Position numbers and translations under genes: made by a program
Notes under the pieces: model-generated
What the model saw: only the letters and a program-made list of their open reading frames with translations
The model's database searches: none
Told to the model about the DNA's origin: nothing
Part shown: positions 30,263-46,301 of the stretch, piece by piece
Numbering within the stretch: the stretch's first letter is position 1
Layout: the number at the start of each line of letters is the position of its first letter
Origin: Phycisphaerae bacterium
Lineage (GTDB): Bacteria > Planctomycetota > Phycisphaerae > UBA1845
DNA length: 64,000 nt
Assembly (NCBI GenBank): GCA_029260055.1
Contig: JAJDDX010000424.1
Coordinates: 20,586 to 84,585 of the forward strand
Reading direction: 5' to 3'

Positions 30263-31252
30263 TCAGCCGTCGGCCCGTCGAAATGCCGTGCCTCTAGTTT
30301 TCGCCGCGATAAGGAGCAAGAGGGCAAGGACGGCGAGTCCCCACGCGGAGACAGCCGGCACGGGCTCGAACTGGCACTCATCAGGAATGCCGTCGCCGTT
30401 GTGGTCCACGCTGCTCCCTTGTACGAGATCGCACTCGTCAGGGACGGCGTTCAGCTGACAGTCTTCACTCGCACCCTGCGTGAGGTCGCACTCATCCGGG
30501 ACGGCGTTGGCCTGGCAGTCCTCACTCGTGCCTTGGGCGATGTCCTGGTCGTCAGGGATGCGGTTGCCGTTGCAGTCGTCGGCGCCGACATGCAGGGTCA
30601 ACGTCGTCGACCAGTCTAGCGGAATGAGGTAGTCGTTTTCGTCCGCGACGAATGTCTGGTCGGCATTCTGCAGGAGGCCGAGCGTAAAACCGCCGCTGGC
30701 GTTTCCGCTCACCGTAAGCAACATGGTTCCCATGTACGTTCGTGTTCCCGGGTCCGGGATCCCCGGTATGCCGAACGCGATTCCGCCGAAGCCGTAGTTG
30801 CCGGCCAAGGCGAGCATTGAAGTGCAGTCGACGGCCAAGATGGCGTCTTGTCCGAAGAACACGTGATCGGGCCGGCTGCCGGGTGGCTCGATGTACAAGG
30901 AACTCCAACAGTGGCACAAGTTACCGTCGCACGCCGATTCGCCGTAACAGTCACCGTCGGCGGTGCACGGCAGTTCCGCCAGAGAGATCGTTCCGGTCGT
31001 GCCACTCGCGAGAGATGCGCCGTCGAGGCGCAATTGATAGTAGAAGAGCAGGCCAGGCGCCCAATCCTGAAGATAGAATTCGACTTTCAACAAGTCGCCC
31101 GGGTTCACGACGAGATCGGCGGACGGCAAACCCGTTGTCGAGCCGTTGATATCGACGACTTCCATGGTCATGACGGCCGGCAGAGCCAGGGTGGCCGTCG
31201 AAAACAACGCGATCAGGCCTCCGCTGAGGCATGAGGTTTTGGCGTGTTTCAT
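30263..31252 (-). CDS. Surface protein paralog 1 (same architecture, 4 repeats)
   Basis: MKHAKTSCL...TLALPAVMTMEVVDING; VPAVSAWGLAVLALLLLIAAKTR. Confidence 0.82.
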   Translation of the reverse strand: MKHAKTSCLSGGLIALFSTATLALPAVMTMEVVDINGSTTGLPSADLVVNPGDLLKVEFYLQDWAPGLLFYYQLRLDGASLASGTTGTISLAELPCTADGDCYGESACDGNLCHCWSSLYIEPPGSRPDHVFFGQDAILAVDCTSMLALAGNYGFGGIAFGIPGIPDPGTRTYMGTMLLTVSGNASGGFTLGLLQNADQTFVADENDYLIPLDWSTTLTLHVGADDCNGNRIPDDQDIAQGTSEDCQANAVPDECDLTQGASEDCQLNAVPDECDLVQGSSVDHNGDGIPDECQFEPVPAVSAWGLAVLALLLLIAAKTRGTAFRRADG

Positions 31253-31354
31253 CGATCTTCGGTCCCTTCCTTCAGAGCGGTCATGTGCATTCGCGGCACG
31301 ACATTTGGGCCGTAGTTCTTCCATGGAGGGCGTCCCATCATCCGTTTCGGTGCG

Positions 31355-34300
31355 TCAGGCGTGGGCTCGTCGACACGTCGCGCTTCTGGTTTTCGCCGCT
31401 ATTGAGAGCAACAGGGCGAGGACGATTAGTCCCCACTGGGAGACGGCCGGGACGGACACGGTTTGGCATTCATCCGGGATGCCGTCGCCATCGTCATCGC
31501 CACTGCTACCTGATGCGATGTCGCATTCGTCCGGTGTGCCGTTGGCCTGGCAGTCCTCGCTCGCACCCTGCGTGATGTCGCACTCATCCGGCACGCCGTT
31601 CGCCTGGCAGTCGTGGCTCGTGCCTTGGGCGATGTCCTGATCGTCGGGGATGCGGTTGCCGTTGCAGTCGTTGGCGCCGACGCGCAGGGTCAACGTCGCC
31701 GACCAGTCCAACGGTATGATCTGGTCATCAGAGTCCACGAGGAATGTTTGATCGGGATCTTGCATGAGGCCGAGCGTGAAAGTGCCGTCGGCGTTTTCGT
31801 CCACCGTAAGGAACATGGTTCCTATGTATTTGGGCGTGCCTTGATCCGGTACGCCCCACGGCGGAGTAAGCAGCGTCCCACCTACGAGGTAGCTCCCTTG
31901 CTGTGCGAGGTTTGAGGTACAGTCGCCGACAATGATGGCGTCGCGTCCGAAGAACAGGTGGTCGGGTCGACTATCCGTCGCTTCCACATACACGGACCCG
32001 CTGCAGTCGCACAGGTTGCCGTCGCATACCGATTCGCCGTAACAGTCGCCGTCCGTGGTGCAGGGCAGCTCGGCGAGCAGGATTGCGCCGGTCCCGCTGC
32101 TTGTCAGTGACGCACCATCCAGGCGCAACTGGTGCGTATTGGCCAACAGGGGCGCCCAATCCTGAAGATAGAATTCGACTTTCAACAAGTCGCCCTGATT
32201 CGCGACGAGGTCGTCCGACGGCAGGCCCGCCGCCGAGCCGTTGACCTCGACGACTTCCATGGTCATGACGGCCGGGGTCGGCTCGATTTGGCATTCATCG
32301 GGAACGCCATCGCCGTTGTCGTCGGTGCTGCTGCCTTGTGCGATGTCGCACTCATCCGGTACGCCGTTCGCCTGGCAGTCGTCGCTGCTGCCTTGGGCGA
32401 TGTCGCACTCGTCAGGCACGTCGTTTAGCTGGCAGTCCTCGCTCGTACCCTGTGCGATGTCCTGGTCATCGGGGATGCCGTTGGGCTGACAGTCCACCAC
32501 GAGGCCGCTGACGTGAAGTTCGCCGGTGAACGCATCGCCGTCTCGCGCCCCGACGCGGATCAGGTATGTCCTTTGCGCCTCGACGTCGATGGTGCTGGAG
32601 GAGCCGACGCCGCAACTGCCATCGAGCGCGTCATCGTTGCAGGTGATGAGTCGATCTCCCGTCGCGGGACAGTCGCCACCGTCGTATACGAGTAGGATGG
32701 TGTCGCCCTGGGGTACCGAGCAGGTATCGAACGTGACGGACCCTGCTACGGGTGCCGTGTACTCGAACCAGACATCGCCCGTCAAGTCGACCGCGCACGC
32801 CTCGCCCGGGCACTGCGCCGTCGCTCCGTTCAGATCGAAGTTCGACGATGTTGCGGCGATGGTTGCGGTGTCACAGGTATTGTTGACTGGGACGTCGCCC
32901 GGCGGGCTGCAGGGGGCCGTGGCCGGTGACGTGACAGTGAGGCGGTATTCTCCGGCAGCGTACTCCGCTTTCGCCCCCAAAAGGACGTAGTAAGTCTCGC
33001 CGATGTTCAGGTCGTAGAGACAGATCGCTGCTTGTCCGTCTTGGCAACTGATCCAGTCGCTGTCGTCGTTGCAGCCGATCGGCACGAGTGAGTTGCATGC
33101 GGCCTGTTCGTCGGTGTGGTCCGTCGCTCGGAAGACCTGAAGCAGCGCGTCCCATGCCGGCAAGTTGTTGGCCCCGCAGGTGTCGACTCGGGCGCTCGCC
33201 TCCGAGGCGGTGAACTTGGCCCAGACGCCGCCGAACCCTTGAGTTCCCGCCCCGGCTCGGTGGCAACAAAAGCCTTCACTTGCGTCGGTTGTGGCACCTC
33301 TGTTATCAAGCGTTGTGGCGCCGTTTGCCTCGCAGCTCTGGCCTGCGGGGCAGTCCGTGTCGTCGAAGCACTGATCGAGGCTGACCGAGCATTCGTTGAG
33401 CATGTATGCACCGCTGTCCGGGGTCGGACCGAAGCACGTGTCGTTACCGACCGGGAGGTCCGTGCATACGGCGACCGCGCGGGTGGCACACGTGCTGTCC
33501 CATTCCCAGATGCAGCAGAACGGGTCCATATCGCAGACTGTGTCGCAGCAGGTCGGGACGTTGCAGCCCACGGTGCCGTTCGCTAGGTCGCACGATCCCT
33601 CCGCGAATCGGCATATCCAACTGATGCAGTCCTGTTGTCCCTGGCCGCAGAATTGCCCCGGCTGCCACACGGCGGCGTGGCCGTCGTCGTCCAGGTGTGA
33701 TTCGCATGTCGTTTCATCGAGATCGACGCACGTTTCGCCGAACGGAGAATTCGGCGGTGTGCAGCAGGCCGCGGTGCCGCAGGTCGGGTCGAACGACACG
33801 CCAAGATCGGTGCAGATTTGGGTCCGGGTGCAGGTCTCGCCGACGGGGCAATCCGCGTCGACAACACACGCATCGTCGGTGAGGCTGCATGCTATCGGGC
33901 AGTCGGCATCGACGGTGCATTCGTCGCTGGTGATGCTGCACGTGTTGGGGCACTTTGCGCCCGACTCAAATCGTACCGTGGACCCCTGGCAGGCGATCTC
34001 CTGGACCTCGCGACAGAATTCTCGCGGCGTGCCCGCTCCCGGCGTAGACAGGTCGCAACATGCACCCGTTGGCGAATTGCCAAGGCAGCGAACGGTGATG
34101 GCGAATCCCGACCACGGGTTACCACCGAACCAGTACAAGTTGCAGTCCGATCCGTCTTGCAGCCCGAAGAAGTCGTCGGTGTAGCCGAGTGCGGCCTGCC
34201 CCGAGAATATGGAGCTTGCCGCTCTATCGAACTTGTAGGCTACCCACAGGGGCATCGCGCCGGTGTTCAGTGCGACGCCGCCGGGAAAGTCGAAGCGAGC

Positions 34301-35257
34301 GAATGCGGGTGAATCGTCAGCGATGAACGCTGCGGTTCCTTGGGTTCCTTCTATCACGAAGGCATCACCGCAGAAGCGCCGGAGTTCAGCCGTTACGGTG
34401 ACGGTGCCGCCGCCGGTGGCGACGCCGCCGATGTCGTAGCTGCTCAGGACGCAGTTATCGATGATCAGTTCGACATCGTCCACGATCCACCAGTTCGGAG
34501 GGAAGACCCACCGCATTCCGCCTAGATTGGCGTTGTAGTAAGCGAGGAACTCTCGGTCGAAGGGCGGTTCGCAGTAGACCTGGGTGTGGAAGCCGGCGTA
34601 GAGCGTCGTGCCGGCGAAGCTGGCGCTGCAGGGTTCGAACGGGATGTCATAGATGTTCGACGTGAAGCCAACCTCGGCGGGGGTACCAACGACCCAGCCG
34701 GGGCCCGCGCGGTCGAACGAGACACCGAGCCACACCGTATTGTCAATGGCCACGGGGCTGGCCGACAGGTCAAGCAGTACGGAATGAAGTCCGTCATCGG
34801 CGATCGCCAGGGAGCCGTCGGTGCCTGGCAGGACCACGCCGCCGCCGTTCGGGCAGCCGTCGTACAGCGCGAAGCTGACGGTGAAACCGGGGCCGGTGCC
34901 GTCGCCGCCGCCGGCGACGAGGAACTCGTATGCCTTGACCGGGCAGCCGTTCACCGCCTCGGTGTGCAGATCGTCCGCCACCAGGGTGTCCGGCGGAAGC
35001 TGCAGGAAGACGTCCGGCGGCGGTGAATTGGCGTAGACCGGATCGTCAAGTATCAGGCCTCCCGCCGAGCCGGCCGAGCCCGTTGTCGCGTTGTAGTAAT
35101 GTCTTTGAGGTTCGAGTCCCGGTGGGATCGAACGGAGCACAGCCGCAGAAGCCTGTGCTTGGTTTGCCGGGCTGCCGTTGTCCGCGGTGATGTCTCCGTT
35201 GGCTGCGAGGCCCGCCGTACCGATGACCCAAATCAGCGCACTTGTGACCGAAACCAT
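31355..35257 (-). CDS. Large secreted Cys-rich multidomain surface protein ending in the same module and IPTL-CTERM-like anchor
   Basis: GACC and CxxxxxxCxxDxDCP motifs, CCDTVCDMDPFCC, two PPC-like domains (VW...DTC...CNDD), two blocks of four 19-aa Cys/Asp repeats, VPAVSQWG. Alternative GTG starts at 35278 and 35284. Confidence 0.8.
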   Translation of the reverse strand: MVSVTSALIWVIGTAGLAANGDITADNGSPANQAQASAAVLRSIPPGLEPQRHYYNATTGSAGSAGGLILDDPVYANSPPPDVFLQLPPDTLVADDLHTEAVNGCPVKAYEFLVAGGGDGTGPGFTVSFALYDGCPNGGGVVLPGTDGSLAIADDGLHSVLLDLSASPVAIDNTVWLGVSFDRAGPGWVVGTPAEVGFTSNIYDIPFEPCSASFAGTTLYAGFHTQVYCEPPFDREFLAYYNANLGGMRWVFPPNWWIVDDVELIIDNCVLSSYDIGGVATGGGTVTVTAELRRFCGDAFVIEGTQGTAAFIADDSPAFARFDFPGGVALNTGAMPLWVAYKFDRAASSIFSGQAALGYTDDFFGLQDGSDCNLYWFGGNPWSGFAITVRCLGNSPTGACCDLSTPGAGTPREFCREVQEIACQGSTVRFESGAKCPNTCSITSDECTVDADCPIACSLTDDACVVDADCPVGETCTRTQICTDLGVSFDPTCGTAACCTPPNSPFGETCVDLDETTCESHLDDDGHAAVWQPGQFCGQGQQDCISWICRFAEGSCDLANGTVGCNVPTCCDTVCDMDPFCCIWEWDSTCATRAVAVCTDLPVGNDTCFGPTPDSGAYMLNECSVSLDQCFDDTDCPAGQSCEANGATTLDNRGATTDASEGFCCHRAGAGTQGFGGVWAKFTASEASARVDTCGANNLPAWDALLQVFRATDHTDEQAACNSLVPIGCNDDSDWISCQDGQAAICLYDLNIGETYYVLLGAKAEYAAGEYRLTVTSPATAPCSPPGDVPVNNTCDTATIAATSSNFDLNGATAQCPGEACAVDLTGDVWFEYTAPVAGSVTFDTCSVPQGDTILLVYDGGDCPATGDRLITCNDDALDGSCGVGSSSTIDVEAQRTYLIRVGARDGDAFTGELHVSGLVVDCQPNGIPDDQDIAQGTSEDCQLNDVPDECDIAQGSSDDCQANGVPDECDIAQGSSTDDNGDGVPDECQIEPTPAVMTMEVVEVNGSAAGLPSDDLVANQGDLLKVEFYLQDWAPLLANTHQLRLDGASLTSSGTGAILLAELPCTTDGDCYGESVCDGNLCDCSGSVYVEATDSRPDHLFFGRDAIIVGDCTSNLAQQGSYLVGGTLLTPPWGVPDQGTPKYIGTMFLTVDENADGTFTLGLMQDPDQTFLVDSDDQIIPLDWSATLTLRVGANDCNGNRIPDDQDIAQGTSHDCQANGVPDECDITQGASEDCQANGTPDECDIASGSSGDDDGDGIPDECQTVSVPAVSQWGLIVLALLLSIAAKTRSATCRRAHA

Positions 35258-35560
35258 GGGCTTCTCTCCGTGGTGCACCTGCACCTTCCTCCGTTAAGTA
35301 TCTGTATGGTACGAACGCCGATCTGAATGAACCGCGATCACTCAGGTACGTGCTGCAGCTTCGGGCCCACCCCAGGAATGCCCCTTAGAACAAGAGGTAA
35401 CGTGGACGATCCCCACCGCGACCTGCGATTATACCGTGTCGGCATTCGGCAGGTCAAGTCCAAACCCGGACTTGCAGGCCCCTGTTCGGCGCACTGTGGG
35501 ATCGGGGCCACGTCTGGGGTATCAGGAGGTCGGTGCGGGCTCTTTGCCGCCTATTCAGGG

Positions 35561-38500
35561 CTACTTCCGGGATGCCGTTCGCTTGTCGACCGGGCAGATC
35601 ACTCGGAAGCCGACGTTGAATACGGGCTGCCAGTCGGGGTAGTGCAGTCGGAATGCGGAGCGGCAGCGTTTCGGGCGGTCTCGCCAGGATCCACCGCGGA
35701 CGACGCGCTCACCGTTGGCCGCATTGTTGTTGCGGTCATCGTCGGCGTAGGGGTACGGCTGGTAGGTGGACTGTGTCCACTCGGCCACGTTCCCGTGCAT
35801 GTCGTGCAGTCCCCAGGCATTTGGCTGAAACGTGCCAACGTTCGCTACGACTCTGTGGCCGTCGTCGAAGCGGGCGTCCTTGGGTAAGTAGTCGGAGCGC
35901 GGGTCGGGGTCTTTGACCGGTTGGGGGTTCACGCCCTGCACCACGAGCTTGCTGGTCGATGCGTCCGCCATGTTCGCGAGCTTGGAGAAGTCCGTGTCGA
36001 GGCCGCCATAGCTCAATCGCGTAGCCGTGCCGGCGCGGGCTGCGTATTCCCATTGGGCTTCCGTCGGGAGAGCGAACGACTCGCCCGTCTCTTTCGAGAG
36101 CCACTGGCAGAACGCTCTGGCCTGACGCCAGGTGACGCGGATGACGGGCTGGTCAGGCAGGTTGGCCGGATAGCCGGGCGTCGTGTGGTCTTTCCATCGC
36201 TGGTCGTAGTAGCCGCTGTCGTGTTCTGCATCAAAGCGGATGAATTGCCGGTTGGTCACTTCCAGTGTGCCCATCCAGAAGGGTTCGTCGATGGTCACGG
36301 CGCTTGTCGGTGCTTCGTCGGCGTCTCCGTACTCATCCCCCATGACATACTGCCCGGCCGGTATGAGCACCAGGTCCATGGTCACGCCATCGCCGAGGTC
36401 GAGTGTTCGTCGTGTGGCGGGGCCGGCTGCCTGTTGCCGGCGCAGGGCTTCGTCGGCGTCGAAGGGCCAGCCGTTGCATTGCACGGCTGCTGCCGGTTTC
36501 CTGTTGACCGGCGCGGGTGTGACCGGCTCGGCCTTGGGCGTGTCAATCCGTACGATCGCCTCGGGATCATCCTCGATGTTTGCGAAAAGCTTGCGGTAGC
36601 GAAGGCGCATCGCATAGGACTTTTCGAATCCGCGCGAGCCCACATGCTCGGTCCACGTGCCGTGGTCCGGGACGTTGAAGTCGATCCACGTGATGAGGCG
36701 ATCCCATTCCACCTGGCTGAGCTGCACGTTGTGGTGACCCTTGCGGAGCATTTGAACGAGTTCGCTCGTGTTGGCGCGGAATTCGGCCGGGCGCAACAGA
36801 TGATAGTCGCTCTCGGGTCCGGGGCGGCGCACGTAGGGGTGCAATTCGAGATAGCTCTTGGTGAACCCGCCCCAGCCGCGAGCGTTGTCGGCGAAGTTGG
36901 GAAGGGCGGGCTCGTCGTCACGCGGGTTGCCGTCGTGGCACGCGACACACTTTCGGTCGAGCACGGGCTGAACCTCGCGCGTGAAGCTGAAACCGCGTGT
37001 CGGTCCGTGCCACGGCGCGATCTGACGTGGTCGATAGGCGGTGGCGACCGTCCGTCGATTCGGAACGGTGGTGTTCGGTGCCTCGTGGCAGCCGACGCAC
37101 GAGAGCATCTCACCCGGCATCGCGGTGAACCAACTGCGCATGAGTTGCAGCGCCTCGCCGCGATCGTTGATCGGTTGGACAGCGAGCGGCGTATTCGCCG
37201 GAACGGTGAACAGTGCCGATCCGTCGGCCTCGACCGGGACCGTGCCGAGGATGCGCTTCACATCCCAGCCGCCTTCCACCGCTGCGTGTTGGTGGCCGCC
37301 GATTTCGTTGTAGCCGTAGTGCCATTCGATGACGCGCAGCGCCTTGATGTCGCCGCGCGGTACACCTGCGAGGCCGGGGCCGTTGTAGACGTCGGCCATG
37401 TAGACGGTCGCATCGGTGCGGTCGGGCCGGACCCTGTCGGGAATGACGGGCGGGCGCTCGCGCTTGACGAGCGGCACCGGTTCGAGCAGCGCCTGGCCGC
37501 GCTCTTCGTGGAGCAGGACCATGTTGTCGAAGACGTCGACGAGATAGATTCCCCAGTGGCTATCCGGCGCGGGCTTGCACGAGACCAGGAAGTACTTTTC
37601 GCTGAGCGGCCACGGTTGGAGGAACTTCGGCCACGAGTCGTCGACGAGTTGATCGACGATGATCGGTTCGACCTTCTTGCCGCGGCCCGGGATGCGCTGA
37701 ACGACGCCGTCGGCCTCGTGCGTGCCTTTTGCGGTGTCCAGGACGATCAACTCTCCCATGCGGGGAACGCCATGATGGCCGGAGACGACGGTTACGAGTT
37801 TTGATGGATGGCCGGGGATCGGTCGCGAGTAGAAGATCGAGTTGGGCCAATAGGAGTTCGACCCGTAGACGGGCATCTGGCTTGTGCCGTCGGGGTTCAT
37901 GCGCATGAGCAGCCGCGTGAAGTAGTGTGGCGTGTCGGTGTATTCCCACCGGGCGAAGAGGACTCCGCCGTCGGGCAGCACGGTCGGGTGCCAGTTGTGA
38001 TCCTGGTCGAAACAGAGCTGGCGGACGTTTTTCCCGTCATCACCCATGATGTAGAGGTTACTGACGGCGTCGGCGCCGCCGACGCAGGGGACGCCCTGGC
38101 ACACCGCGGCGGAGGCGAAGACGATGCGGCCATCCGGCAGATAGCAGGCGTCGTAGTTGTCGGTTTCGGTGATGGGGCCGCTGGTGACTTGGCGCAGGTT
38201 GCCGCCGTCGATACCGATCTCGAACACCTGCCAGCGATGATCGTCATCGAGGGATGAGAACAGCAAGCGGTCGGCGTCGAAGTGGAGGTCGACATCGCCT
38301 ACGAAGACATTCCGCTCGGGTTTGTAGAGCGTGTCGAGTTGCGGGCGATCGCGAAAGGAGGACATGCGGCAGATGGCGTCGTCGTAGCCGGTTCGCGGGA
38401 GTGCACAATTGCCTTGCCAGTTCTGCGGCAGGCCGGTTCGTGGTCCGGTGTTGGCTCGTCTCACGATGAGTAGCTCGTCGAAGTCGAGCAGCGGGTTGGC

Positions 38501-39511
38501 TAGAAGCACCTTGCGCTGGATTGCGATGATGCGCTCGGCACGATCGAGGACCTCGTCGGTCCCCTGTTCGAGTTCGGCTCGGACGGCGGCGGCCTTGGCT
38601 TCGATACCCTCGAGTTGACGGCGGTAGTCGGCTGCTCCGGCATATCGATCGCCGAAGGACTCGGTCAGGTCGGCGGCTGCGAGCCGCAGCGCTTCCGCAT
38701 CGAACAAGCGCATCTGAACTCTCGCTCTGGCGAGCCGATCGCGCCGTAAGCGTGCCTTGTCGAAGAGCGTGATCCACTGCGCGTCTTGGATGGGTTTCTG
38801 ATCGCCGACGAGCTGTGCAAGCCGTGTGCGCATCGGTTTTGCGGCGGCGCCGATCTGATCGAGCAAGCCGGAGACGATCCTACCTGCGTGCCGCAGATCA
38901 TCGGCCGGCGTCGCATACGTCGCGTCTTCCGTAAGCGGCTTGAACGACGAATGGGGTGACGTCGTGCTCTGCGTGGCGAACTTGTTCAGGGCGATGTTGG
39001 TGTCCGGGGTGCCGGTGCCGAAGATTTGCACTTCGTCGAGGTGGAACATCGTTTCTTCACGAAGCCAAAGACGCACGTAGCGGGCTGATTCACCGTCGAG
39101 CGCAACGGTCAATGGCTCGCCCTTTTCGTGGCCATAGAACTCCGAGCCGTCGTGACGGTAGACCTCATTCCATGTGTTGCCATCGTCGGAGAGGTGTACG
39201 GTGATGGTGCGGGCACGCTCCCAGAGACCGACGCGGTTGAAGATGACGATGCGGTCGAGCGGGTCCGATTCGGCAAGGTCCACCTGCCACCAGGGGGCGA
39301 GCTCCTTGGACGTGTGGAATGCGAAGCCGCCGTCGATCACGCCGTCGACACCCCCGGCTGCGTCGCGGGAGGGGTCCTTCTCGTATGCCTTGCGTATCGC
39401 GTGGGTCCATGCGGCGCGTGCGTCGGCGCTCGGGGCATTCTGCGCGGTGGCGATGCCGGTTGTAGCCAGGATCAACAATGTCGTAAGCTTGGTAATGGCT
39501 CTCATGGTCAT
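35561..39511 (-). CDS. Discoidin (F5/8C) + hydrazine synthase alpha-like propeller/di-heme region + SUMF1/FGE-like domain protein
   Basis: Signal peptide; PWWQVDL...IVIFNR; propeller motifs YDACYLPDGRIVF and ARWEY; LGTVPVEADGSALFTVPANTP...MRSW...PGE; hemes CVGCH and CVACH; FGE-like LPTEAQWEYAARAG, NAWGLHDMHGNVAEW and RGGSW. Confidence 0.85.
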   Translation of the reverse strand: MTMRAITKLTTLLILATTGIATAQNAPSADARAAWTHAIRKAYEKDPSRDAAGGVDGVIDGGFAFHTSKELAPWWQVDLAESDPLDRIVIFNRVGLWERARTITVHLSDDGNTWNEVYRHDGSEFYGHEKGEPLTVALDGESARYVRLWLREETMFHLDEVQIFGTGTPDTNIALNKFATQSTTSPHSSFKPLTEDATYATPADDLRHAGRIVSGLLDQIGAAAKPMRTRLAQLVGDQKPIQDAQWITLFDKARLRRDRLARARVQMRLFDAEALRLAAADLTESFGDRYAGAADYRRQLEGIEAKAAAVRAELEQGTDEVLDRAERIIAIQRKVLLANPLLDFDELLIVRRANTGPRTGLPQNWQGNCALPRTGYDDAICRMSSFRDRPQLDTLYKPERNVFVGDVDLHFDADRLLFSSLDDDHRWQVFEIGIDGGNLRQVTSGPITETDNYDACYLPDGRIVFASAAVCQGVPCVGGADAVSNLYIMGDDGKNVRQLCFDQDHNWHPTVLPDGGVLFARWEYTDTPHYFTRLLMRMNPDGTSQMPVYGSNSYWPNSIFYSRPIPGHPSKLVTVVSGHHGVPRMGELIVLDTAKGTHEADGVVQRIPGRGKKVEPIIVDQLVDDSWPKFLQPWPLSEKYFLVSCKPAPDSHWGIYLVDVFDNMVLLHEERGQALLEPVPLVKRERPPVIPDRVRPDRTDATVYMADVYNGPGLAGVPRGDIKALRVIEWHYGYNEIGGHQHAAVEGGWDVKRILGTVPVEADGSALFTVPANTPLAVQPINDRGEALQLMRSWFTAMPGEMLSCVGCHEAPNTTVPNRRTVATAYRPRQIAPWHGPTRGFSFTREVQPVLDRKCVACHDGNPRDDEPALPNFADNARGWGGFTKSYLELHPYVRRPGPESDYHLLRPAEFRANTSELVQMLRKGHHNVQLSQVEWDRLITWIDFNVPDHGTWTEHVGSRGFEKSYAMRLRYRKLFANIEDDPEAIVRIDTPKAEPVTPAPVNRKPAAAVQCNGWPFDADEALRRQQAAGPATRRTLDLGDGVTMDLVLIPAGQYVMGDEYGDADEAPTSAVTIDEPFWMGTLEVTNRQFIRFDAEHDSGYYDQRWKDHTTPGYPANLPDQPVIRVTWRQARAFCQWLSKETGESFALPTEAQWEYAARAGTATRLSYGGLDTDFSKLANMADASTSKLVVQGVNPQPVKDPDPRSDYLPKDARFDDGHRVVANVGTFQPNAWGLHDMHGNVAEWTQSTYQPYPYADDDRNNNAANGERVVRGGSWRDRPKRCRSAFRLHYPDWQPVFNVGFRVICPVDKRTASRK

Positions 39512-39564
39512 CTCACTATTTCGCTCGCCGGCAATCGAGCCTATGAAGCAGTTGTCGCTTCGTA

Positions 39565-41382
39565 CTACAAAGCGCGCAGATACGCGATCAGGTCTTCAAA
39601 CTGTGGCTCGGTCAGGTGCGATGTAATGCCGTGTCGGTCGTCCTTGTTGCATCCGAAAAGGACATCACGCAGTTTCGCGGCCGAGCCGTCGTGCAAGTAA
39701 GGGGCGGTTCGCCACAGCTCCGCGAGCGTCGGCGTGTCGAACGTTTCGGTCCGGTCGAGTTTGCCGCGCGTGCCCACATCATATTGTTTGAGATCAGTAT
39801 ACAACGGTGCGGGGTGGCAGCGCGCGCAACCTGTGGTCTCCTGCTCGAACACCTCGCGACCGCGCTGAATCTGTGCGGCGAGCGGGCCGGTGTCGCCGGC
39901 GAAGGGGCTCTTCACCGGTTCGAGCGAGCGCAGGTAGGCGCGGACATCTTCGAGATCGGCGGTACTGATCTGCTGGAACGCGATGTGCGTAAACCCGGCT
40001 GCGGAGGCCACTTCCATCGATGCACGCGCGCCGCGCGACATAACCGGCGGCGTCTTGTGGCTCCATACGAGGGAGCGTACGTTCTTGGGATTGCCGAGTC
40101 CGTCGTTGAGCAGGTCCCAGTTCATACCGTCCGCGCGCGTATCGGGATGGCACGTCGCGCAGCTAAGCCATGTTTGTTTGGAGTATGTCGCGTCGTGGAA
40201 GATCCGTTCGCCGCGCCGTTCGGCATCGGGTTCGGGTTGGTTTTGGAGCGTCACGACGGTGCGCAGGGCGGCGTTGTGTGCATCCAGCAGAAGCACCGTG
40301 CCCGAAAAGTACATCGCGACAGCAAGCGTCTTTCCATCAGGCGAGACGGCCAAGCCACGCGGCCCTTTGCCCGGCAAAGGCGTTCGCCGAATCGCGCCGG
40401 CACGGGAGAGCGCCGCTATGTCGTCTTCCAATCCCTTGCGTTTGTCTGCGAGCAGCGCCGATAGGCCGGGGAGGTCGATGGTCGCGAGCTGGTGCGTGCC
40501 CGAGAGGGTCACCCACAGCCGGCTTCCGTCGGGTGCGACGGCGACGCCCCACGGGTCGGCTGCGCCCTCGAGCAGGTAGTCGAGCAGTACCGTCCCCAGG
40601 CGTCGGTGCGACTTCAAGTCGATCACACTCAGTGCGTTCGTGTTGACCCAGCCGCGCTCGATCTGCGTGGTCGGTAGGTTGGTACGGCCGAGCGTATGTA
40701 CGACGTACGCCCGCCTACCATCCGGGTCGATGGCGACGCCGCGTCCGCAAGACGAGCCGGACGGGAGACGAATGTGGGCGAGTTCGGCACGTAGTTCGAG
40801 GTCGACCAAGGTGACGACGGCCGATTGGCCTGGCCTATCCGCACGACCTTGGGGAATCAGGTGGCTGACGACCGCAAGCGACTCGTCCGGTGAGATCGCC
40901 ACCGCGAACGGCTGGCGCGACGTGGGGACGACCGTTCTTCGTACGGTGCTCCCGAGCTTCGCCACGGTGACGCCGTCTCTCGCATAGTCGGCGGCGACGA
41001 GCATGTTATGGTTCGGGGCGAATGCGATCCCTCGCAACCACAAGCCCGCTTCGAATCGGCGCGTGACCGAACCTTTGTCCGCGTCGATGTCGGCGATCGT
41101 GCCGACGCGAGATTCCGCCACGTACAGGTGCGAACCGTCGGGAGCCCACGTGATGCCGGCGGGGCGGTCATCCACTGCGCACTCGTGCAGCACGTTCGCT
41201 CCAGCGACGCCGATCAGTGTTACGACGCCGGCTGTGTGGTCCGAGACGGCGAGCATGGCGCCGTCCGGCGAGAAAGCCAGATCGATCGGGGAGCGGTAGG
41301 GGGGATCGGCCCATGCCGAGGTGCCCGCGCACAATACGCAGGCCATAAGAGCGGCACATCGACGGGTGCGGGCGTCCGGCAT
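39565..41382 (-). CDS. YVTN-type beta-propeller fused to a di-heme cytochrome c peroxidase-like domain
   Basis: Signal peptide; repeats AFSPDG, TWAPDG, AISPDE, AIDPDG, AVSPDG; hemes CATCH and CARCH; TPTLAELWRTAPYLHDGSA. Confidence 0.87.
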   Translation of the reverse strand: MPDARTRRCAALMACVLCAGTSAWADPPYRSPIDLAFSPDGAMLAVSDHTAGVVTLIGVAGANVLHECAVDDRPAGITWAPDGSHLYVAESRVGTIADIDADKGSVTRRFEAGLWLRGIAFAPNHNMLVAADYARDGVTVAKLGSTVRRTVVPTSRQPFAVAISPDESLAVVSHLIPQGRADRPGQSAVVTLVDLELRAELAHIRLPSGSSCGRGVAIDPDGRRAYVVHTLGRTNLPTTQIERGWVNTNALSVIDLKSHRRLGTVLLDYLLEGAADPWGVAVAPDGSRLWVTLSGTHQLATIDLPGLSALLADKRKGLEDDIAALSRAGAIRRTPLPGKGPRGLAVSPDGKTLAVAMYFSGTVLLLDAHNAALRTVVTLQNQPEPDAERRGERIFHDATYSKQTWLSCATCHPDTRADGMNWDLLNDGLGNPKNVRSLVWSHKTPPVMSRGARASMEVASAAGFTHIAFQQISTADLEDVRAYLRSLEPVKSPFAGDTGPLAAQIQRGREVFEQETTGCARCHPAPLYTDLKQYDVGTRGKLDRTETFDTPTLAELWRTAPYLHDGSAAKLRDVLFGCNKDDRHGITSHLTEPQFEDLIAYLRAL

Positions 41383-41435: not shown

Positions 41436-42317
41436 TCACGATTGCTTCAGGTCGTTATAGAGTTCGAGCGCTGCTTCCGGCGACATTTGGTCGTGAACGA
41501 CACCGCGCACGGCCTGGATCATCGCTTTCGGGTCGTCCGCCTGGAAGATGTTGCGCCCCATGTCGACGCCGGCTGCCCCTTGGTCGATCGCGTGATGGGC
41601 CATCTCCAGGGCGTCGAGTTCCGGCAGTTTCTTGCCGCCGGCGATCACGATCGGGACCGGGCAGCCCGCGGTCACCGTCTCGAACCCCTCTTGGCAGTAG
41701 TATGTCTTGACGACCTGAGCCCCGTTTTCCGCGAGCACGCGTGACGCCATGCCGAGGTACCGCGCGTCGCGCGTCAGTTCCTGGCCGACGGCTGTGACGC
41801 CGAGTGTGGGAATGCCGTAGCGATTACCCGCTTCAATCATCCTGCAGAGGTTGCGGATCGTCCTTGCTTCGAACTTCTTGTCGCCGATGGCCACCATTAC
41901 CGCCATCATCGAGGCGTTCAGACGAATGGCGTCTTCGATTTGAACGCCGACACATTCGTCGTTGAGTTCGGTCAGGACGGTCGACCCGGCGGAGCACCGA
42001 AGCGAGATAGGTTTGCTACACGTCGGCGGAATGCACGTACGCAGCACGCCTCGCGAGCACATGAGGCAGTCGGCATGTTCGATCAGCGGCACGATCGAAA
42101 CGTCGATGCGCTCGAGCCCCGATGTGGCCCCCATGATGTATCCGTGGTCGAATGCCAGCATGACGGTCTTTCCGGATTTCGGATCGAAGATGCGCGACAG
42201 GCGGTCCTTCATGCCCCAGTCGTAGCTGTGAGCGCCTTTTAGTTCGGAGGTCGGATTCGCAGCCGGGGCTCCGACTCTGAAGGCGTTCGCGGAGACGTTG
42301 CCGTTTGCGTCAGGCAT
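41436..42317 (-). CDS. lsrF: LsrF-type class I aldolase-fold thiolase
   Basis: [61 protein letters not shown]. Confidence 0.9.
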
Positions 42318-42948
42318 TCGTGAATCCCTCCGTAAAGCCGGCGAAGATGAGCGACATCGAGGCGGCACCGGGGTCGACGTGACCGATCGAGCGCTCGCCG
42401 ATATGCCGTGCTCGTCCGAACGCAGCTACCATCTGTTTCGTCGCTTCGGCGCCGGCGGCCGCGGCGTGTGCTCCGGCGTTCAGCGCGTCCGCTATTGATC
42501 GGCCTTCGTTAGCCGCGGTACGGATTGCGTCGGTGGCCGGCACCAGGGCGTCCATCATGGTCTTGTCGCCCGGTTTGGCCTTGGTGTTCAGTTGCAGGTT
42601 GGCGACACCCGCCTCCAGCATGCCCGCGAATTCCGCGGCGTCCAGCGCGGTATCGCCGGCCTGTTCGCTCATGCCCAGGAACCAGGAGCCGTAAAGTGGG
42701 CCTGTCGAGCCGGCGTCCGTACCCATCGCAGCCCAGCCGATGTCCGCCAGCAGTGAAGCGAGCTTCTTGTCGCCGTGGTTGTCCATGGTTCGAGTGATCG
42801 CATCGGCGACTTTGCCCATGGCCGTGCCGTGGTCGCCGTCGCCGGTGGCTGCGTCCAGGGTCGAGAGGGTCTGCTTGGCGTTGCGCACGCGCTCGGCCGC
42901 GGACGCCCACATGCGCCTCATGACATCATAATCGACATGGTCGGCCAC
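42310..42948 (-). CDS. dhaL: Dihydroxyacetone kinase family subunit L
   Basis: LDAATGDGDHG, GSTGPLYG, GDKTMMDALVP, GRAR, GHVDPGA. Confidence 0.9.
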   Translation of the reverse strand: MADHVDYDVMRRMWASAAERVRNAKQTLSTLDAATGDGDHGTAMGKVADAITRTMDNHGDKKLASLLADIGWAAMGTDAGSTGPLYGSWFLGMSEQAGDTALDAAEFAGMLEAGVANLQLNTKAKPGDKTMMDALVPATDAIRTAANEGRSIADALNAGAHAAAAGAEATKQMVAAFGRARHIGERSIGHVDPGAASMSLIFAGFTEGFTNA

Positions 42949-42965: not shown

Positions 42966-43967
42966 TCATCGCCCGACCCAATAGGGTGCGTTGGCCGGGG
43001 CCTTGAGCAGTTGCTCCAGTTCGTCGTCGAGTTTGGCGACGAACATCTGGAACCCGCCCATCTCCTGGACCGTAAGGTACTCGCCCACCATGGAATGAGC
43101 TATGTGCATGCCTTTCGACTCGACGATCTGCATGACCCGGCGGAACACGACGAAAAGCTCCATCTGAGTCGTGGCGCCGGCGCCGTTGAGCATGACGAGT
43201 AGTCGATCGTCGGCTTTCGCCTTGATCGCCAGCAGCAACTGCGTGAGCATCGTCTCAGCGGTCTCATCGGCGGTCATTACTTTCGAACGCCCGGTGCCCG
43301 CTTCGCCGTGCTGCCCCATGCCGATTTCCATCTCGTCTTCAGCCAGTTCGAAGATCTCCTGGCCCGACTGCGGATGCGTGGCTGGTTTGAGCGCGACGGC
43401 CAGCGTGGCCATGTTGTCGTTCAGACGCTTCGCGACTGCGTAGACCTCATCGAGGCTCTTGCCCGCTTCGGCGGCGGCTCCGGCGACCTTGAAGATCGAA
43501 AGGCACCCGACGAGGCCGCGGCGATCTTCAGCCGGCGCGTCGGCGCCGGGCGCGATGTCTTCGTGAGTCAGGAGCATTTTGACCTTGATGCCTTCTTTTT
43601 CCACCATCTGCAGCGCCATGTTGCCGCTCATGACGTCGCCGGCGTGGTTGAGGACCACGAACAGGATGCCCACGTCGCGCTTCAGGAGTCGTAGCGCGTC
43701 GACTACCTTGATCGGACCCGGCGCCGCGAAGATGTCGCCGACGACCGACGCGTCCAGCATGCCCTCGCCGACGAAGCCGCTCAAGGCCGGTTCGTGTCCC
43801 GCGCCGCCGAGCGTGACGATCGCGACCTTGCTTTCATCCTTCGGGGTCGCGCGCATGACGATCCTGTCGGACTCGAGTCGGACCAACTGTGGGAACGCGC
43901 CACAGTAGCCTTCGAGCAGTTCACCGGTCAGTTCGTCCGGGTCATTGATGAACTTCTTCATCGCCAT
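42966..43967 (-). CDS. dhaK: Dihydroxyacetone kinase family subunit K
   Basis: MKKFINDP, GGAGHEPALSGFVGEGMLD, RRGLVG, EIGMGQHGEAG. Start at ATG 43967 or 43961. Confidence 0.9.
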   Translation of the reverse strand: MAMKKFINDPDELTGELLEGYCGAFPQLVRLESDRIVMRATPKDESKVAIVTLGGAGHEPALSGFVGEGMLDASVVGDIFAAPGPIKVVDALRLLKRDVGILFVVLNHAGDVMSGNMALQMVEKEGIKVKMLLTHEDIAPGADAPAEDRRGLVGCLSIFKVAGAAAEAGKSLDEVYAVAKRLNDNMATLAVALKPATHPQSGQEIFELAEDEMEIGMGQHGEAGTGRSKVMTADETAETMLTQLLLAIKAKADDRLLVMLNGAGATTQMELFVVFRRVMQIVESKGMHIAHSMVGEYLTVQEMGGFQMFVAKLDDELEQLLKAPANAPYWVGR

Positions 43968-43996
43968 GGGAAATGTCCTCCAAGCGGGCCGAGGGG

Positions 43997-44311
43997 TCAG
44001 GCCATCTGCATCAGTTCGATCGGTGCGCCTTCTTCGATGATAAACGCGACAGTCACGCCCTCCATGGGCGAGAACGGCTCCATCAGGACCTCTTTGCCAA
44101 CCATCTCCGCTTCCAGGTCGCCGACCTGATAGGCGATGTGCGGAAGGGCCTGCAACATCCTCGGCATAGTGCTGCCCGTTTCGAAGCGGAGCCATTCGAT
44201 CTTGTTGGGGCTGGCTGCTACGTCCGTGATATAGAGCTTGGCCTCTTCGAGATAGGTCTCGTTCTCGTGCGTCTCGCTAGACGGAATCCCGATGTGATGA
44301 AACGTACGCAT
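43997..44311 (-). CDS. Small VOC/glyoxalase-like protein
   Basis: FHHIGIP, IEWLRF, PHIAYQV and PIELM give the His/Glu/His/Glu metal-ligand pattern. Confidence 0.7.
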   Translation of the reverse strand: MRTFHHIGIPSSETHENETYLEEAKLYITDVAASPNKIEWLRFETGSTMPRMLQALPHIAYQVGDLEAEMVGKEVLMEPFSPMEGVTVAFIIEEGAPIELMQMA

Positions 44312-44337: not shown

Positions 44338-45030
44338 CTAGAAGACCACGGATTCGTTGGTGAACTCGAGTGCGTCGTCGTAATGCGGCGTGCCGTACTC
44401 AGCCACGATCGCTCCGGCGGGTCCGGCGATCATGAAGTGCGGTGCCGTGACGCGGTTCAGCGTGCCGATTTCGCCTTCGCTGAGCGTGAGGCAGCGGCGC
44501 GCGGTGATGGCGTCGGCTTTCAACTGGCTTTCCGGAAGTCGGCACGGCAAGTCGTCGGTCGGTTCGCCTTCTCCGAAGGTATGGATCATGCCGTGGCGCA
44601 CGTGCCACGATTCCATCTTCGCCGGGCCTTCGGAACTGATGGTGTGGCGGTGTTCCACGATCATCTGGCCCGGCAGCAAATAGATCTCGTGGGCGAAGTA
44701 GTGGTGCTCCTTGTTGTTGATCCAGAAGATGCCGGCCATGCCCACGTTGGCGAAGTCGTTCTGCGCGAAGTCGCTCGTCCAGAACTCGTCGGTCTTCAGG
44801 ACCGCCGGAATTGGGTAGGCGAAGCGCTCCATCATGTCGTAGTAGGCTTGGAAGGCCTTCTTCTTGTTGAAGACGCCTTCGTCGTAGAAGTCGCTGCTGA
44901 GCAAGGCGGTGCTCCGTTTGCTGTTTGTGAGTGAGTGATGTCCGTGGCTGCAGCCGGTGACCAAGGCCGCACCCGCGACGGCCGCCGTCTTCAGGGCGCC
45001 GCGTCTTGTGACGTGATCCGCATGGTCCAT
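44338..45030 (-). CDS. D-lyxose/D-mannose isomerase-like cupin with Tat lipoprotein signal
   Basis: TRRGALK twin-arginine motif, lipobox VTG-C; cupin motifs LLPGQMIVEHRH...KMESW, PHFMIAG...EY. Confidence 0.72.
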   Translation of the reverse strand: MDHADHVTRRGALKTAAVAGAALVTGCSHGHHSLTNSKRSTALLSSDFYDEGVFNKKKAFQAYYDMMERFAYPIPAVLKTDEFWTSDFAQNDFANVGMAGIFWINNKEHHYFAHEIYLLPGQMIVEHRHTISSEGPAKMESWHVRHGMIHTFGEGEPTDDLPCRLPESQLKADAITARRCLTLSEGEIGTLNRVTAPHFMIAGPAGAIVAEYGTPHYDDALEFTNESVVF

Positions 45031-45087
45031 GATTCCGTCTCCGTGAAAGCGCGTCGCGGGGCGATCGGTTCGAATGCCGCGTCGAGT

Positions 45088-45103
45088 GATCTACATGTAG
45101 AAC
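45088..45103. promoter_or_regulatory. Palindromic operator 1 (probably IclR)
   Basis: GATCTACATGTAGAAC, a near-perfect inverted repeat just downstream of the leftward -10 box. Confidence 0.6.
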
Positions 45104-45110
45104 GATGATC

Positions 45111-45139
45111 TATATAGCAGGCATGTGTAGCGCTGTAAA
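45111..45139 (-). promoter_or_regulatory. Sigma70 promoter of the sugar operon
   Basis: Minus strand TTTACA-N17-TATATA with TG at the extended -10 position. Confidence 0.55.
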
Positions 45140-45203
45140 CCAAATCGACGTTTCGTCGCTGCCGCCCGCCGACAGACCCGCAGCGAAAGCCTGATCCGGG
45201 CGC

Positions 45204-45231
45204 TTGACGTGACCGGATGGTGGGCTACGAT
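45204..45231 (+). promoter_or_regulatory. Sigma70 promoter of the IclR gene
   Basis: TTGACG-N16-TACGAT. Confidence 0.5.
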
Positions 45232-45240
45232 TGGATGGTA

Positions 45241-45256
45241 GTTTGATATATAGAAC
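45241..45256. promoter_or_regulatory. Palindromic operator 2 (IclR autoregulation)
   Basis: GTTTGATATATAGAAC, an imperfect inverted repeat sharing the right half TAGAAC with operator 1. Confidence 0.55.
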
Positions 45257-45279
45257 TCCAGGGGCGAGCCTGACTCCAA

Positions 45280-46071
45280 ATGCAAGAGACCGACGAGACC
45301 GGCACGAAGTACAGTGTTCCCAACTTGGAGCGAGCCCTGTCGATTCTCGAACTCCTCGCCGCGCATCCGGGCGGTTTGAAACTCGCGGAGATCACGCAGC
45401 GGCTCGGCTATCCCAAGAACAGCGTCTTTCGGGTCACGACGACGCTGTGCGATCGCGGTTACCTCACGCGGGACGAGGCGACGAAGTGTTTCAGATTGAG
45501 CCGCAAGCTCCTGGCGATGGGGCATCAGGTCTTGTCGGAGAGGCCGATCGTTCCGGCTGCGATTGATGTCATGTACGAATGCCGCGACGCGCTGAAAGAG
45601 ACGGTTTTGCTCGGCACGATCGTCGAGGACGGTTGCATCGTGCTCGAACAGGTGCTCGGTACGCACCCTTTCAAGTTTTCTATCGATATGGGAGCGCGCA
45701 TCAACCTTCACGCCAGCGCGCCGGGCAAGGCGATGCTGGCCTACCTGCCGGAGGCGGAGCGCGAGGGTCTGGTTTCGCGCCTCAAGCTGACTCGCTTCAA
45801 CGAGCGGACGATCACGTCGAAGAAGGCGCTGGCGACCGAGCTTCAGTATGTGCGTGAATGCGGCTTCGCACTGGATCGTGGAGAGGAACTGCACGGGATC
45901 GTCTGTGTCGCCGGGCCGGTGCTGAATCAACACGGTTATCCGGTCGCTTCGATGTGGATCACCGGCCCGGCGGATCGCGTGCCGGAGGACCTGTTCGCCC
46001 AAACCGGAACTCAGATTCGGCGATACGCGGACACGATTTCGGCCCGGCTCGGGTATCACCCGGCACCGTAG
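45280..46071 (+). CDS. IclR-family transcriptional regulator
   Basis: YSVPNLERALSILELL, HTH PKNSVFRVTTTL, ETVLLG, HASAPGKAMLA, GFALDRGE...CVAGPV. Confidence 0.95.
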   Translation: MQETDETGTKYSVPNLERALSILELLAAHPGGLKLAEITQRLGYPKNSVFRVTTTLCDRGYLTRDEATKCFRLSRKLLAMGHQVLSERPIVPAAIDVMYECRDALKETVLLGTIVEDGCIVLEQVLGTHPFKFSIDMGARINLHASAPGKAMLAYLPEAEREGLVSRLKLTRFNERTITSKKALATELQYVRECGFALDRGEELHGIVCVAGPVLNQHGYPVASMWITGPADRVPEDLFAQTGTQIRRYADTISARLGYHPAP

Positions 46072-46301
46072 CGCAAGTCGGTTCCCCGTTCGTGCTCCGG
46101 TTTACGCCGCATGGCCTCGGACGGCTCCGATCGCCGAATTCCGTTAATTCACTTGCCTTTCCATACGCAACTTGCCACGATAGAGGTATGCGCCGATGCT
46201 CCTGAGCGGTGGAATTGCCGCGGCGGAAGGTATATGAGGTCGACCGCGCGGTTCGCACGCGGGGCATTCGGCAAAGCGGGGTCCTCTTGGGGGTGTCAAA
46301 A

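Follow-up and report, generated by a model that had tools for sequence, protein, structure and literature searches.

Few enzymes of the nitrogen cycle are as unusual as hydrazine synthase (HZS), which for a long time was believed to have no relatives. The subject of this study is a pair of neighbouring genes resembling it in a stretch of DNA of 64,000 nucleotides (nt), hereafter the window, from a Phycisphaerae bacterium (contig JAJDDX010000424.1, forward-strand positions 20,586 to 84,585). One gene encodes an alpha-like chain, P0001, and the other a fused beta-gamma-like chain, P0002. In the solved enzyme of Kuenenia stuttgartiensis (PDB 5C2V), the alpha subunit consists of a propeller, a middle domain with haem I and a C-terminal domain with haem II, and P0001 has the same build. 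The seven-bladed propeller of HZS beta and the CCP-like di-haem domain of HZS gamma are both matched by P0002, which shares its fusion with the NCBIfam 'beta-gamma fusion' model. As in HZS, beta-gamma lies upstream of alpha. In the solved enzyme, alpha, beta and gamma form a single complex in which a tunnel connects haems gamma-I and alpha-I. The reading that we favour, with moderate confidence, is that P0001 and P0002 are subunits, alpha-like and fused beta-gamma-like respectively, of a tetrahaem protein of the periplasm that shares the architecture of HZS without being HZS, and that this protein belongs to a sugar-type six-gene cluster whose redox, kinase and aldolase functions would form one route.

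Pairs of this kind have recently been described. Hagglund et al. (Genome Biol Evol, December 2025; PMC12758564) reported co-located alpha-like and fused beta-gamma-like genes outside anammox bacteria, in non-anammox Planctomycetota, Desulfobacterota, Verrucomicrobiota, Acidobacteriota and Bacteroidota, assigned the homologues to clades I-IV and concluded that key HZS residues are not conserved in them. The pairs in that paper have an HZS_alpha domain, the haem alpha-I motif and a neighbouring beta-gamma gene with two C-terminal CxxCH motifs, all of which are present in P0001 and P0002. The locus studied here is a further case of the kind of system published there. Table S5 of the same paper contains alpha homologues of 1089-1259 aa annotated as SUMF1/EgtB/PvdO and others of 968-986 aa with a discoidin domain; these annotations place within its data set the type of alpha found here, which carries a domain like that of the formylglycine-generating enzyme (FGE) and is referred to below as alpha-FGE. 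Clade IV, characterized by taxon-specific gene order and the absence of FG-GAP and ABC genes, fits our locus when the two are compared by description only. The main text of PMC12758564 contains none of the words sulfatase, FGE, formylglycine, discoidin, dihydroxyacetone, aldolase, cupin and lyxose, and as presented there the homologues came with no functional clue. In our literature searches, neither the alpha-FGE fusion nor a cluster combining LsrF/DhaK with cytochromes turned up in any paper. Three things are thus apparently additional to the literature searched: the very large size of the alpha-FGE family, a natural fusion of both chains (locus L102, below) and the recurrence of the six-gene cluster across phyla. 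An earlier note on this DNA, made from the sequence alone, had taken the pair for a complex with HZS architecture but a different, uncharacterised chemistry; its HZS-like, non-HZS nature stands, although the pair is less new than supposed, given the non-anammox pairs already published (PMC12758564).

Both open reading frames (ORFs) lie on the minus strand, 53 nt apart, exactly where the earlier note had placed an adjacent, co-oriented pair. They are the last two genes of a co-oriented six-gene cluster, in the order cupin, DhaK, DhaL, LsrF-like, beta-gamma, alpha:

44338..45030, minus strand: exported cupin of the D-lyxose/D-mannose isomerase type, 230 aa (gene 1 of the cluster)
42966..44195, minus strand: DhaK-type substrate-binding subunit of dihydroxyacetone kinase, 409 aa as listed (Pfam, NCBIfam, PDB)
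42310..42948, minus strand: DhaL-type nucleotide-binding kinase subunit (Pfam, NCBIfam)
41436..42368, minus strand: LsrF-type class I aldolase/thiolase of the DeoC/LacD family (NCBIfam, PDB)
39565..41382, minus strand: P0002, fused beta-gamma-like chain, 605 aa (Pfam, NCBIfam, PDB, model)
35561..39511, minus strand: P0001, alpha-like chain with FGE-like domain, 1316 aa (Pfam, PDB, model)

For P0001, Pfam, sequence motifs and a model of the core agree on the parts that had been proposed from the sequence (discoidin domain, propeller, middle domain, two CxxCH motifs and FGE-like domain). Pfam finds an F5/8 type C domain at residues 52-152 (E 9.7e-12; window 39056-39358), nearest to fucose-binding lectins (E about 4e-7), the HZS_alpha middle domain at residues 720-810 (E 1.5e-30; window 37082-37354) and an FGE-sulfatase domain (PF03781) at residues 1046-1305 (E 1.5e-48, profile positions 4-254 of 255; window 35597-36376). 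The remaining parts are a helical region (window 38495-38929), the propeller (37430-38494) and a C-terminal haem domain (36572-37081). The CxxCH motifs start at residues 805 and 855 (window 37085-37099 and 36935-36949). The sequence match to solved HZS alpha is confined to the middle domain (E 5.5e-7), and the NCBIfam model hydrazine_alpha gives 48.3 bits at a cut-off of 800. The model of residues 340-1040 (pLDDT 87.5, pTM 0.88) matches HZS alpha (5c2v_D) by VIA across all three domains, with Z 34.0 and a root-mean-square deviation (rmsd) of 2.8 Å over 560 aligned residues (model 2-621). The next structural match, TolB, reaches Z 25.7 and covers the propeller only. Foldseek likewise returns HZS alpha (E 7.3e-26, TM 0.67/0.62). 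Invariant in 46 aligned alpha cores are, in P0001 numbering, the two haem motifs (C805/C808/H809 and C855/C858/H859) together with H926, C476, H529 and H580.

P0002 had been described as a propeller fused to a di-haem peroxidase-like domain, and both halves are recovered: a seven-bladed, HZS beta-like propeller at about residues 29-378 (window 40249-41298) and a gamma-like di-haem domain at about residues 385-605 (window 39568-40230), with CxxCH motifs at residues 408 and 519 (window 40147-40161 and 39814-39828). Its best NCBIfam model is hydrazine_BC, the beta-gamma fusion (E 9.3e-54, 182.7 bits, cut-off 1250), followed by hydrazine_beta (E 6.5e-35, 120.9 bits, cut-off 560) and hydrazine_gamma (E 6.7e-32, 110.8 bits, cut-off 625); Pfam assigns the CCP-like domain, with its two CxxCH motifs, to CCP_MauG (PF03150, E 2.1e-8). 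The best solved relatives are HZS beta (5c2v_B, E 1.1e-30) and HZS gamma (5c2v_C, E 8.6e-29), whereas matches to other di-haem enzymes are far weaker (6e1c, E 1.5e-6; a CCP, E 1.9e-4). In the model (pLDDT 89.1, pTM 0.90), the propeller superposes on 5c2v_B with Z 45.2 and an rmsd of 2.3 Å over 334 aligned residues, the next propeller scoring Z 38.2, and Foldseek gives E 6.6e-27. Structure searches with the whole model were filled by propeller matches, so that the likeness of the gamma-like domain to HZS gamma rests on sequence. Both CxxCH motifs and the segment D418-K433 are invariant in 51 aligned beta-gamma chains, and a loop of blade 6 (P0002 231-255) is conserved. The HZS-like architecture and the four haem c motifs described in the earlier note are borne out for the two chains. 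By eye, the N-termini of both chains look like Sec signal peptides, suggesting that P0001 and P0002 are secreted.

The likeness to HZS has clear limits. Sequence identity is only 17-26%, P0001 adds a lectin, a helical region and an FGE-like domain to the alpha build, and the operon partners here are sugar-type enzymes. At haem alpha-I of HZS, His587 binds Zn and Tyr591, four residues further on, ligates the iron (PMC12607021, PMC12758564). This Tyr ligand is absent in P0001, where the position four residues after His809 is Asn813, and the family consensus there is not Tyr either. In HZS gamma, Cys165 provides a third covalent link to the haem, and Asp168 is the proposed proton donor near haem gamma-I (PMC12758564, PMC12607021). 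The 10-residue segment that contains both has no counterpart in P0002 in a phmmer alignment to 5c2v_C, given a gamma numbering offset of 39 deduced from the CxxCH positions in PMC12758564. A further position, gamma His144, is Trp in CCP/MauG and in clades I-III (PMC12758564). It aligns with Ser449 of P0002, in a column that across 51 relatives holds I (17), S (15), A (6), W (6) and V (5); the inter-haem tryptophan of CCP/MauG is thus not conserved in the P0002 family. Because the residues that define HZS are missing, the chemistry is expected to differ from that of HZS, in line with what had been proposed from the sequence. The P0001/P0002 pair is not a hydrazine synthase.

The genome (7.63 Mb in 500 contigs, scored as 100% complete and 4.84% contaminated) is likewise not that of an anammox bacterium, as the earlier note had assumed. 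Genome-wide, the best scores are 119.8 bits for hydrazine_BC (cut-off 1250) and 58.3 bits for hydrazine_alpha (cut-off 800). Hydrazine dehydrogenase was not found in it, the best match to NF052343 reaching 66.5 bits at a cut-off of 900; octahaem ORFs scanned singly stayed at or below 82.7 bits and are not hydrazine dehydrogenase. All these scores lie far under the cut-offs. The genome is very rich in multihaem cytochromes: ORFs with 43, 28, 24, 19 and 17 CxxCH motifs occur on contigs such as C378, C20, C274 and C57, and 69 ORFs of at least 150 aa have at least two such motifs. HZS-like pairs number three in all, the other two being of shorter kinds. At C386:19099-23282 on the minus strand, an alpha of 597 aa with one CxxCH is directly followed by a beta-gamma chain of 797 aa with six; at C395:12165-17858 on the plus strand, an alpha of 702 aa, a gene of 567 aa and a beta-gamma chain of 632 aa follow one another. 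The beta-gamma chains of these two loci form a distant outgroup to P0002 (100* split), and the Cys/His residues that never vary in the propeller of the alpha-FGE type are missing from their alphas.

The FGE-like domain deserves separate treatment, as databases name proteins of this family after it. Among solved structures, the domain comes closest to PorK/GldK (E 6.7e-20) and PvdO (E 9.4e-17), followed by true FGE (E 2.1e-15). In true FGE the catalytic Cys pair lies, as we take it, shortly after the GGS motif. P0001 has the FGE-sulfatase fold in common with the copper-dependent FGE, but not this pair. Across 88 family members, RGGS is at least 98% conserved and D1278-R1279-P1280 at least 90%, while Cys1283 is less than 70% conserved. 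A conserved Cys pair after RGGSW is therefore absent from the family; P0001 has one Cys (1283), the first position being a conserved Asp. The lack of the catalytic pair noticed in the sequence is thus a trait of the family, and the pair is also missing from all 17 FGE-like domains inspected of the 23 FGE-sulfatase matches in the genome. Both PvdO and PorK/GldK, a component of the type IX secretion ring, keep RGGSW without the Cys pair, just as P0001 does, although in P0001 the domain is fused to a di-haem propeller protein and no pyoverdine or type IX secretion context is present. We infer that the domain is a binding or scaffold module, as in these two proteins, and not a formylglycine generator. 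The FGE-type names that databases give to the alpha-FGE family would then be a probable mis-annotation in thousands of entries.

The four genes preceding the pair encode proteins of sugar-enzyme types. The cupin scores 22.3 bits with the NCBIfam model TAT_signal_seq (cut-off 16.7) and has a lipobox-like Cys; in Pfam, only the TAT signal is matched at E<=1. It is related to solved D-lyxose/D-mannose isomerases (7nzo, E 4.5e-12; 2y0o, E 7.2e-10), with EHRH, K.E and H aligned, presumably the metal-binding positions of these enzymes, and the Atlas clusters nearest to it bear the name 'D-lyxose ketol-isomerase family protein' (score 0.97). Among 41 rows of cupin homologues, 20 match a strict twin-arginine pattern and two have no signal as called; by eye, most of the others show RR followed by a hydrophobic stretch, or a Sec/lipoprotein-like signal. 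DhaK matches Pfam Dak1 (E 1.6e-105), the NCBIfam DhaK model (321.7 bits, under the cut-off of 406) and PDB 3ct4_A (E 1.5e-62 over residues 78-392). Since its similarity begins near residue 75-80, the true start is probably later than that of the listed 409-aa ORF. DhaL matches Pfam Dak2 (E 3.2e-44) and NCBIfam TIGR02365 (156.7 bits, above the cut-off of 138.3). The LsrF-like protein belongs to NCBIfam NF006081, '3-hydroxy-5-phosphonooxypentane-2,4-dione thiolase' (E 6.7e-133, 442.4 bits, cut-off 297), and matches solved LsrF (3glc_A) with E 6.2e-106 over residues 26-308.

The closest described parallel to these four genes is the end of the enteric Lsr pathway (LsrK, LsrG, LsrF), where an LsrF-type gene, a kinase and an isomerase-type protein likewise stand side by side. 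In that pathway the kinase LsrK is of the FGGY type, and the lsr operon also holds LsrG and the Lsr ABC transporter. LsrF converts a phosphorylated hydroxy-diketone to dihydroxyacetone phosphate (DHAP) and acetyl-CoA, and the DhaKL family phosphorylates 1-hydroxy-2-ketones. Our cluster differs in that the kinase is DhaK/DhaL and not of the FGGY type, the isomerase-type protein is an exported cupin and not LsrG, and neither an Lsr transporter nor an Lsr regulator is present in it. No FGGY kinase or ABC transporter was found among the 16 ORFs scanned at 22.7-64 kb of the window.

The alpha-FGE family proved to be very large. A word-indexed search scored 7999 candidates, 7907 of them at E<=1e-3, and all 120 matches listed are 46-100% identical to P0001 over the 701-aa core and carry both PF18582 and PF03781. 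Against 1.84 billion representatives at 50% identity, 6459 matches were obtained at E<=1e-3 and 1540 at E<=1e-30; this search also returned P0192 (2831 aa), a second very long relative besides the fusion at L102. In species-representative genomes, 278 stretches encode alpha-FGE relatives, from Planctomycetota, Hydrogenedentota, Verrucomicrobiota, Sumerlaeota and others. Within the phylum of the window the distribution is patchy, with 9 of 151 sampled genomes positive at E<=1e-30. The N-terminal modules vary: among the 120 listed matches, eight are of F5/8C type (that of the window included), five are NPCBM and one is Laminin_G_3.

Gene linkage was counted from three sides: at the best 80 alpha-FGE loci with flanks of 10 kb (29 of them with full 10-kb flanks), at 79 beta-gamma loci with 8 kb allowed for an alpha-like gene, and at 22 cupin loci. 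A beta-gamma relative occurs at 18 of the 80 alpha-FGE loci, usually directly downstream (9 of the 29 with full flanks). An alpha-like core occurs at 39 of the 79 beta-gamma loci; 20 of these cores are of the alpha-FGE type and the rest are short alphas with 28-36% identity. At least one of Dak1, Dak2, DeoC and cupin accompanies alpha-FGE at 31/80 loci, all four at 18/80, and all four plus beta-gamma at 11/80. With full flanks the figures are 13/29 for at least one gene, 10/29 for all four and 16/29 for either the four-gene set or beta-gamma. The cupin was found at 13 of the 79 beta-gamma loci, among them loci of Carboxylicivirga, Rikenellaceae, Porphyromonadaceae, other Bacteroidales and a Bryobacteraceae metagenome-assembled genome (MAG), and these loci include Bacteroidota with the same six genes. 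Seen from the cupin, beta-gamma is present at 8/22 loci and an alpha core at 7/22, and the cupins of gut Thermoguttaceae (40-47% identical) stand alone. The conserved linkage on which the earlier note had staked its case thus recurs but is not universal. The usual order at related loci, DhaK, DhaL, LsrF-like, cupin, alpha-FGE, beta-gamma, differs from that of the window. Among genomes of the phylum with alpha-like genes, beta-gamma is present in 5/5 and adjacent in only one.

The full six-gene set is present in three cultured bacteria, Novipirellula herctigrandis CA13, Sediminicola luteus HQA918 and Carboxylicivirga sp. N1E11. In a Verrucomicrobiae MAG (L102, 1602-11294, plus strand), a single frame of 3230 aa fuses alpha-FGE and beta-gamma; it comprises autotransporter-type repeats, HZS_alpha, FGE-sulfatase, two PKD domains, a propeller and a CCP-like di-haem domain, with four CxxCH motifs. 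In a tree of 92 beta-gamma rows, those linked to alpha-FGE are scattered through the family, and P0002 is sister to a chain from a Luteolibacter MAG (SH-aLRT 81) within a clade of 16 rows. Other genes also recur beside alpha-FGE: sulfatases (5 loci), aldo-keto reductases (4), GFO/IDH/MocA oxidoreductases (3+3), a second DeoC aldolase (4), RidA-domain proteins (4) and GH78 rhamnosidase (3). A parallel arrangement is seen in a different subfamily: in a Bacteroides, a short-alpha/beta-gamma pair comes after genes for an FGGY kinase, a Zn-dependent dehydrogenase and a DeoC aldolase.

Several features of related loci were noted in passing. At Bacteroidota loci (L122:9706-12615, L167:9640-10509), a 'Mal s 1-like' propeller protein adjoins alpha or beta-gamma, as does, in Carboxylicivirga, a protein that combines an FkbO-like N-terminal domain with a RidA domain. 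At six loci, tandem alpha-FGE copies are separated by an unannotated gene of about 330 aa (cluster c9). A MAG labelled 'uncultured Candidatus Kuenenia sp.' (L153) has a P0002-like beta-gamma chain (41% identity) beside a short alpha-like chain (35%); this beta-gamma, which sits on a long branch of the tree, is of the non-HZS type, in a bin that bears the label of an anammox genus.

Taken together, these results are best accommodated, in our view, by the tetrahaem protein and sugar-type cluster introduced above. The two chains would be expected to assemble as in HZS, because each is homologous to subunits of a solved complex, their genes are adjacent and one natural fusion joins them. Alpha and beta-gamma may then catalyse a redox reaction in the periplasm, with a small sugar-like compound as substrate; the varying lectin-type modules at the N-terminus of alpha hint at glycans or deoxy-sugars. 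The exported cupin could perform a ketol isomerisation of the product, after which the resulting 1-hydroxy-2-ketone would be taken up and phosphorylated by DhaKL, and the LsrF-type enzyme would split the phosphorylated ketone into dihydroxyacetone phosphate and an acyl-CoA or aldehyde. A more specific version of this proposal, which we put forward tentatively and regard as rather doubtful, has the alpha-FGE/beta-gamma complex act in the periplasm as the entry enzyme to a catabolic route not yet described: haem-dependent redox chemistry on a deoxy- or keto-sugar, possibly held by the lectin and FGE-like modules, followed by cupin isomerisation, DhaKL and an LsrF-type thiolase yielding DHAP and acyl-CoA.

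A number of observations weigh against this reading. Binding of the two chains to each other is deduced from homology, gene order and the fusion. Neither partner set is found within 10 kb at 42 of the 80 alpha-FGE loci (13 of the 29 with full flanks), and one family of genomes has 7-8 alpha-FGE copies and about 2-4 beta-gamma copies on other contigs; since alpha-FGE copies outnumber beta-gamma, many alpha-FGE proteins must work without an adjacent partner. The 16-row clade of P0002 is mixed in neighbour types, and in a tree of 46 of the 86 full-length alpha cores both partner sets are missing from the vicinity of the five nearest relatives of P0001. The cluster has no recurrent transporter. 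The export signal of the cupin fits a periplasmic role, yet is unusual for a sugar isomerase. To our knowledge, the only known substrate of LsrF is a compound of the autoinducer-2 (AI-2) pathway, the other genes of which are absent from the cluster. In addition, the gene calls at related loci are our own ORF and tblastn calls on high-GC DNA with many shadow ORFs.

The obvious alternative is a nitrogen chemistry related to that of HZS, such as nitric oxide or hydroxylamine reduction, N-N bond formation or cleavage, or deamination of an amino compound, with the sugar genes processing the carbon skeleton or being unrelated. In its favour, no solved structure is closer to P0002 than HZS beta and gamma, none resembles the fold of the P0001 core more than HZS alpha, the invariant segment after the first gamma-like haem motif also resembles HZS gamma, and proteins of the RidA type, an imine deaminase family, lie beside alpha-FGE at four loci and occur in Carboxylicivirga. 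We nevertheless consider this alternative unlikely. Asn replaces the Tyr591 ligand, the gamma Cys165/Asp168 segment is absent, the scores fall far under the NCBIfam cut-offs (7-15% of them, as calculated in our analysis) and the genome has no hydrazine dehydrogenase; Hagglund et al. reach a like conclusion for the homologues treated in their paper (PMC12758564). Some of the same facts could be accommodated by assuming that beta-gamma is a MauG/MbnH-like maturase that modifies a residue of alpha or of the cupin, giving a protein-derived catalytic cofactor. The gamma-like domain does match CCP_MauG, TTQ MauG and MbnH-family models as well as the di-haem enzyme 6e1c. Moreover, some genomes have fewer copies of beta-gamma than of alpha-FGE, as a shared maturase would predict, and the alpha propeller has invariant, subfamily-specific Cys/His residues. 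However, the position that is Trp in MauG and CCP according to PMC12758564 is variable (W in 6/51), and the natural fusion and the fixed order of alpha then beta-gamma better suit a stoichiometric partner, so that a maturase role appears improbable to us.

It might also be supposed that adjacency means nothing and that the locus encodes two independent periplasmic redox or peroxidase proteins next to unrelated sugar genes. Such a view could draw on the 62 of 80 alpha-FGE loci without beta-gamma nearby and on the weak clustering of neighbour labels on the alpha tree (18 changes, compared with a mean of 23.1 after shuffling). It is hard to square with the recurrence of one gene set, in one order, in Planctomycetota, Hydrogenedentota, Verrucomicrobiota, Acidobacteriota and Bacteroidota, with the fused frame at L102 and with the homology of both chains to subunits of one solved complex, and we judge it quite improbable. 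Least probable of all, and in our opinion very unlikely, is that alpha is a haem-assisted sulfatase-maturating or sulfatase-related enzyme whose FGE-like domain recognises sulfatase motifs. The strong match to the FGE-sulfatase domain (E 1.5e-48), the database names 'formylglycine-generating enzyme' or 'SUMF1/EgtB/PvdO' and the sulfatase genes near alpha-FGE at five loci and at 59742-61457 of the window would all be expected on this account, and the host phyla are rich in sulfatases. Yet the domain has no conserved Cys pair, the solved structures closest to it are those of the non-catalytic PorK/GldK and PvdO, and a presence in 9 of 151 genomes of the phylum is too patchy for a general maturation factor.

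The surroundings of the cluster in the window can be described briefly. Upstream, a 322-aa Arg-rich ORF without family match (45091-46059, minus strand) lies between the cluster and a divergent M1-peptidase gene. It is probably not a gene, in which case the 1.2 kb at 45031-46208 would be the promoter region of the cluster. A scan for promoters and terminators stayed at chance level (promoter-like sites, 2 against 2.3 expected; terminator-like sites, 9 against 7.8). Downstream of the alpha gene, four consecutive genes on the minus strand (28183-35284) encode proteins of 328, 385, 353 and 1309 aa that end in IPTL-CTERM sorting motifs. The longest, P0003, is rich in Cys, contains short acidic Cys motifs that occur repeatedly, and weakly matches a galactose-binding-like domain associated with the type IX secretion system. 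Elsewhere the window holds two Ser/Thr kinases (22759-25986 and 57036-59726), the sulfatase already mentioned (59742-61457) and two large minus-strand ORFs of 1844 and 813 aa (50719-56253 and 61493-63934) without a Pfam match at E<=1e-4.

Overall, the largest HZS-like subfamily, alpha-FGE, repeatedly sits with an exported cupin, DhaKL and an LsrF-type enzyme, and this association offers a hint to the function of homologues that are widespread outside anammox bacteria. If the proposed route is correct, hydrazine synthase would have arisen from a widespread sugar-processing haem enzyme, and its homologues would gain a function that can be tested in cultured bacteria. The operon context, the natural fusion and the cultured carriers make both the function of these proteins and the origin of hydrazine synthase open to genetics and enzymology.

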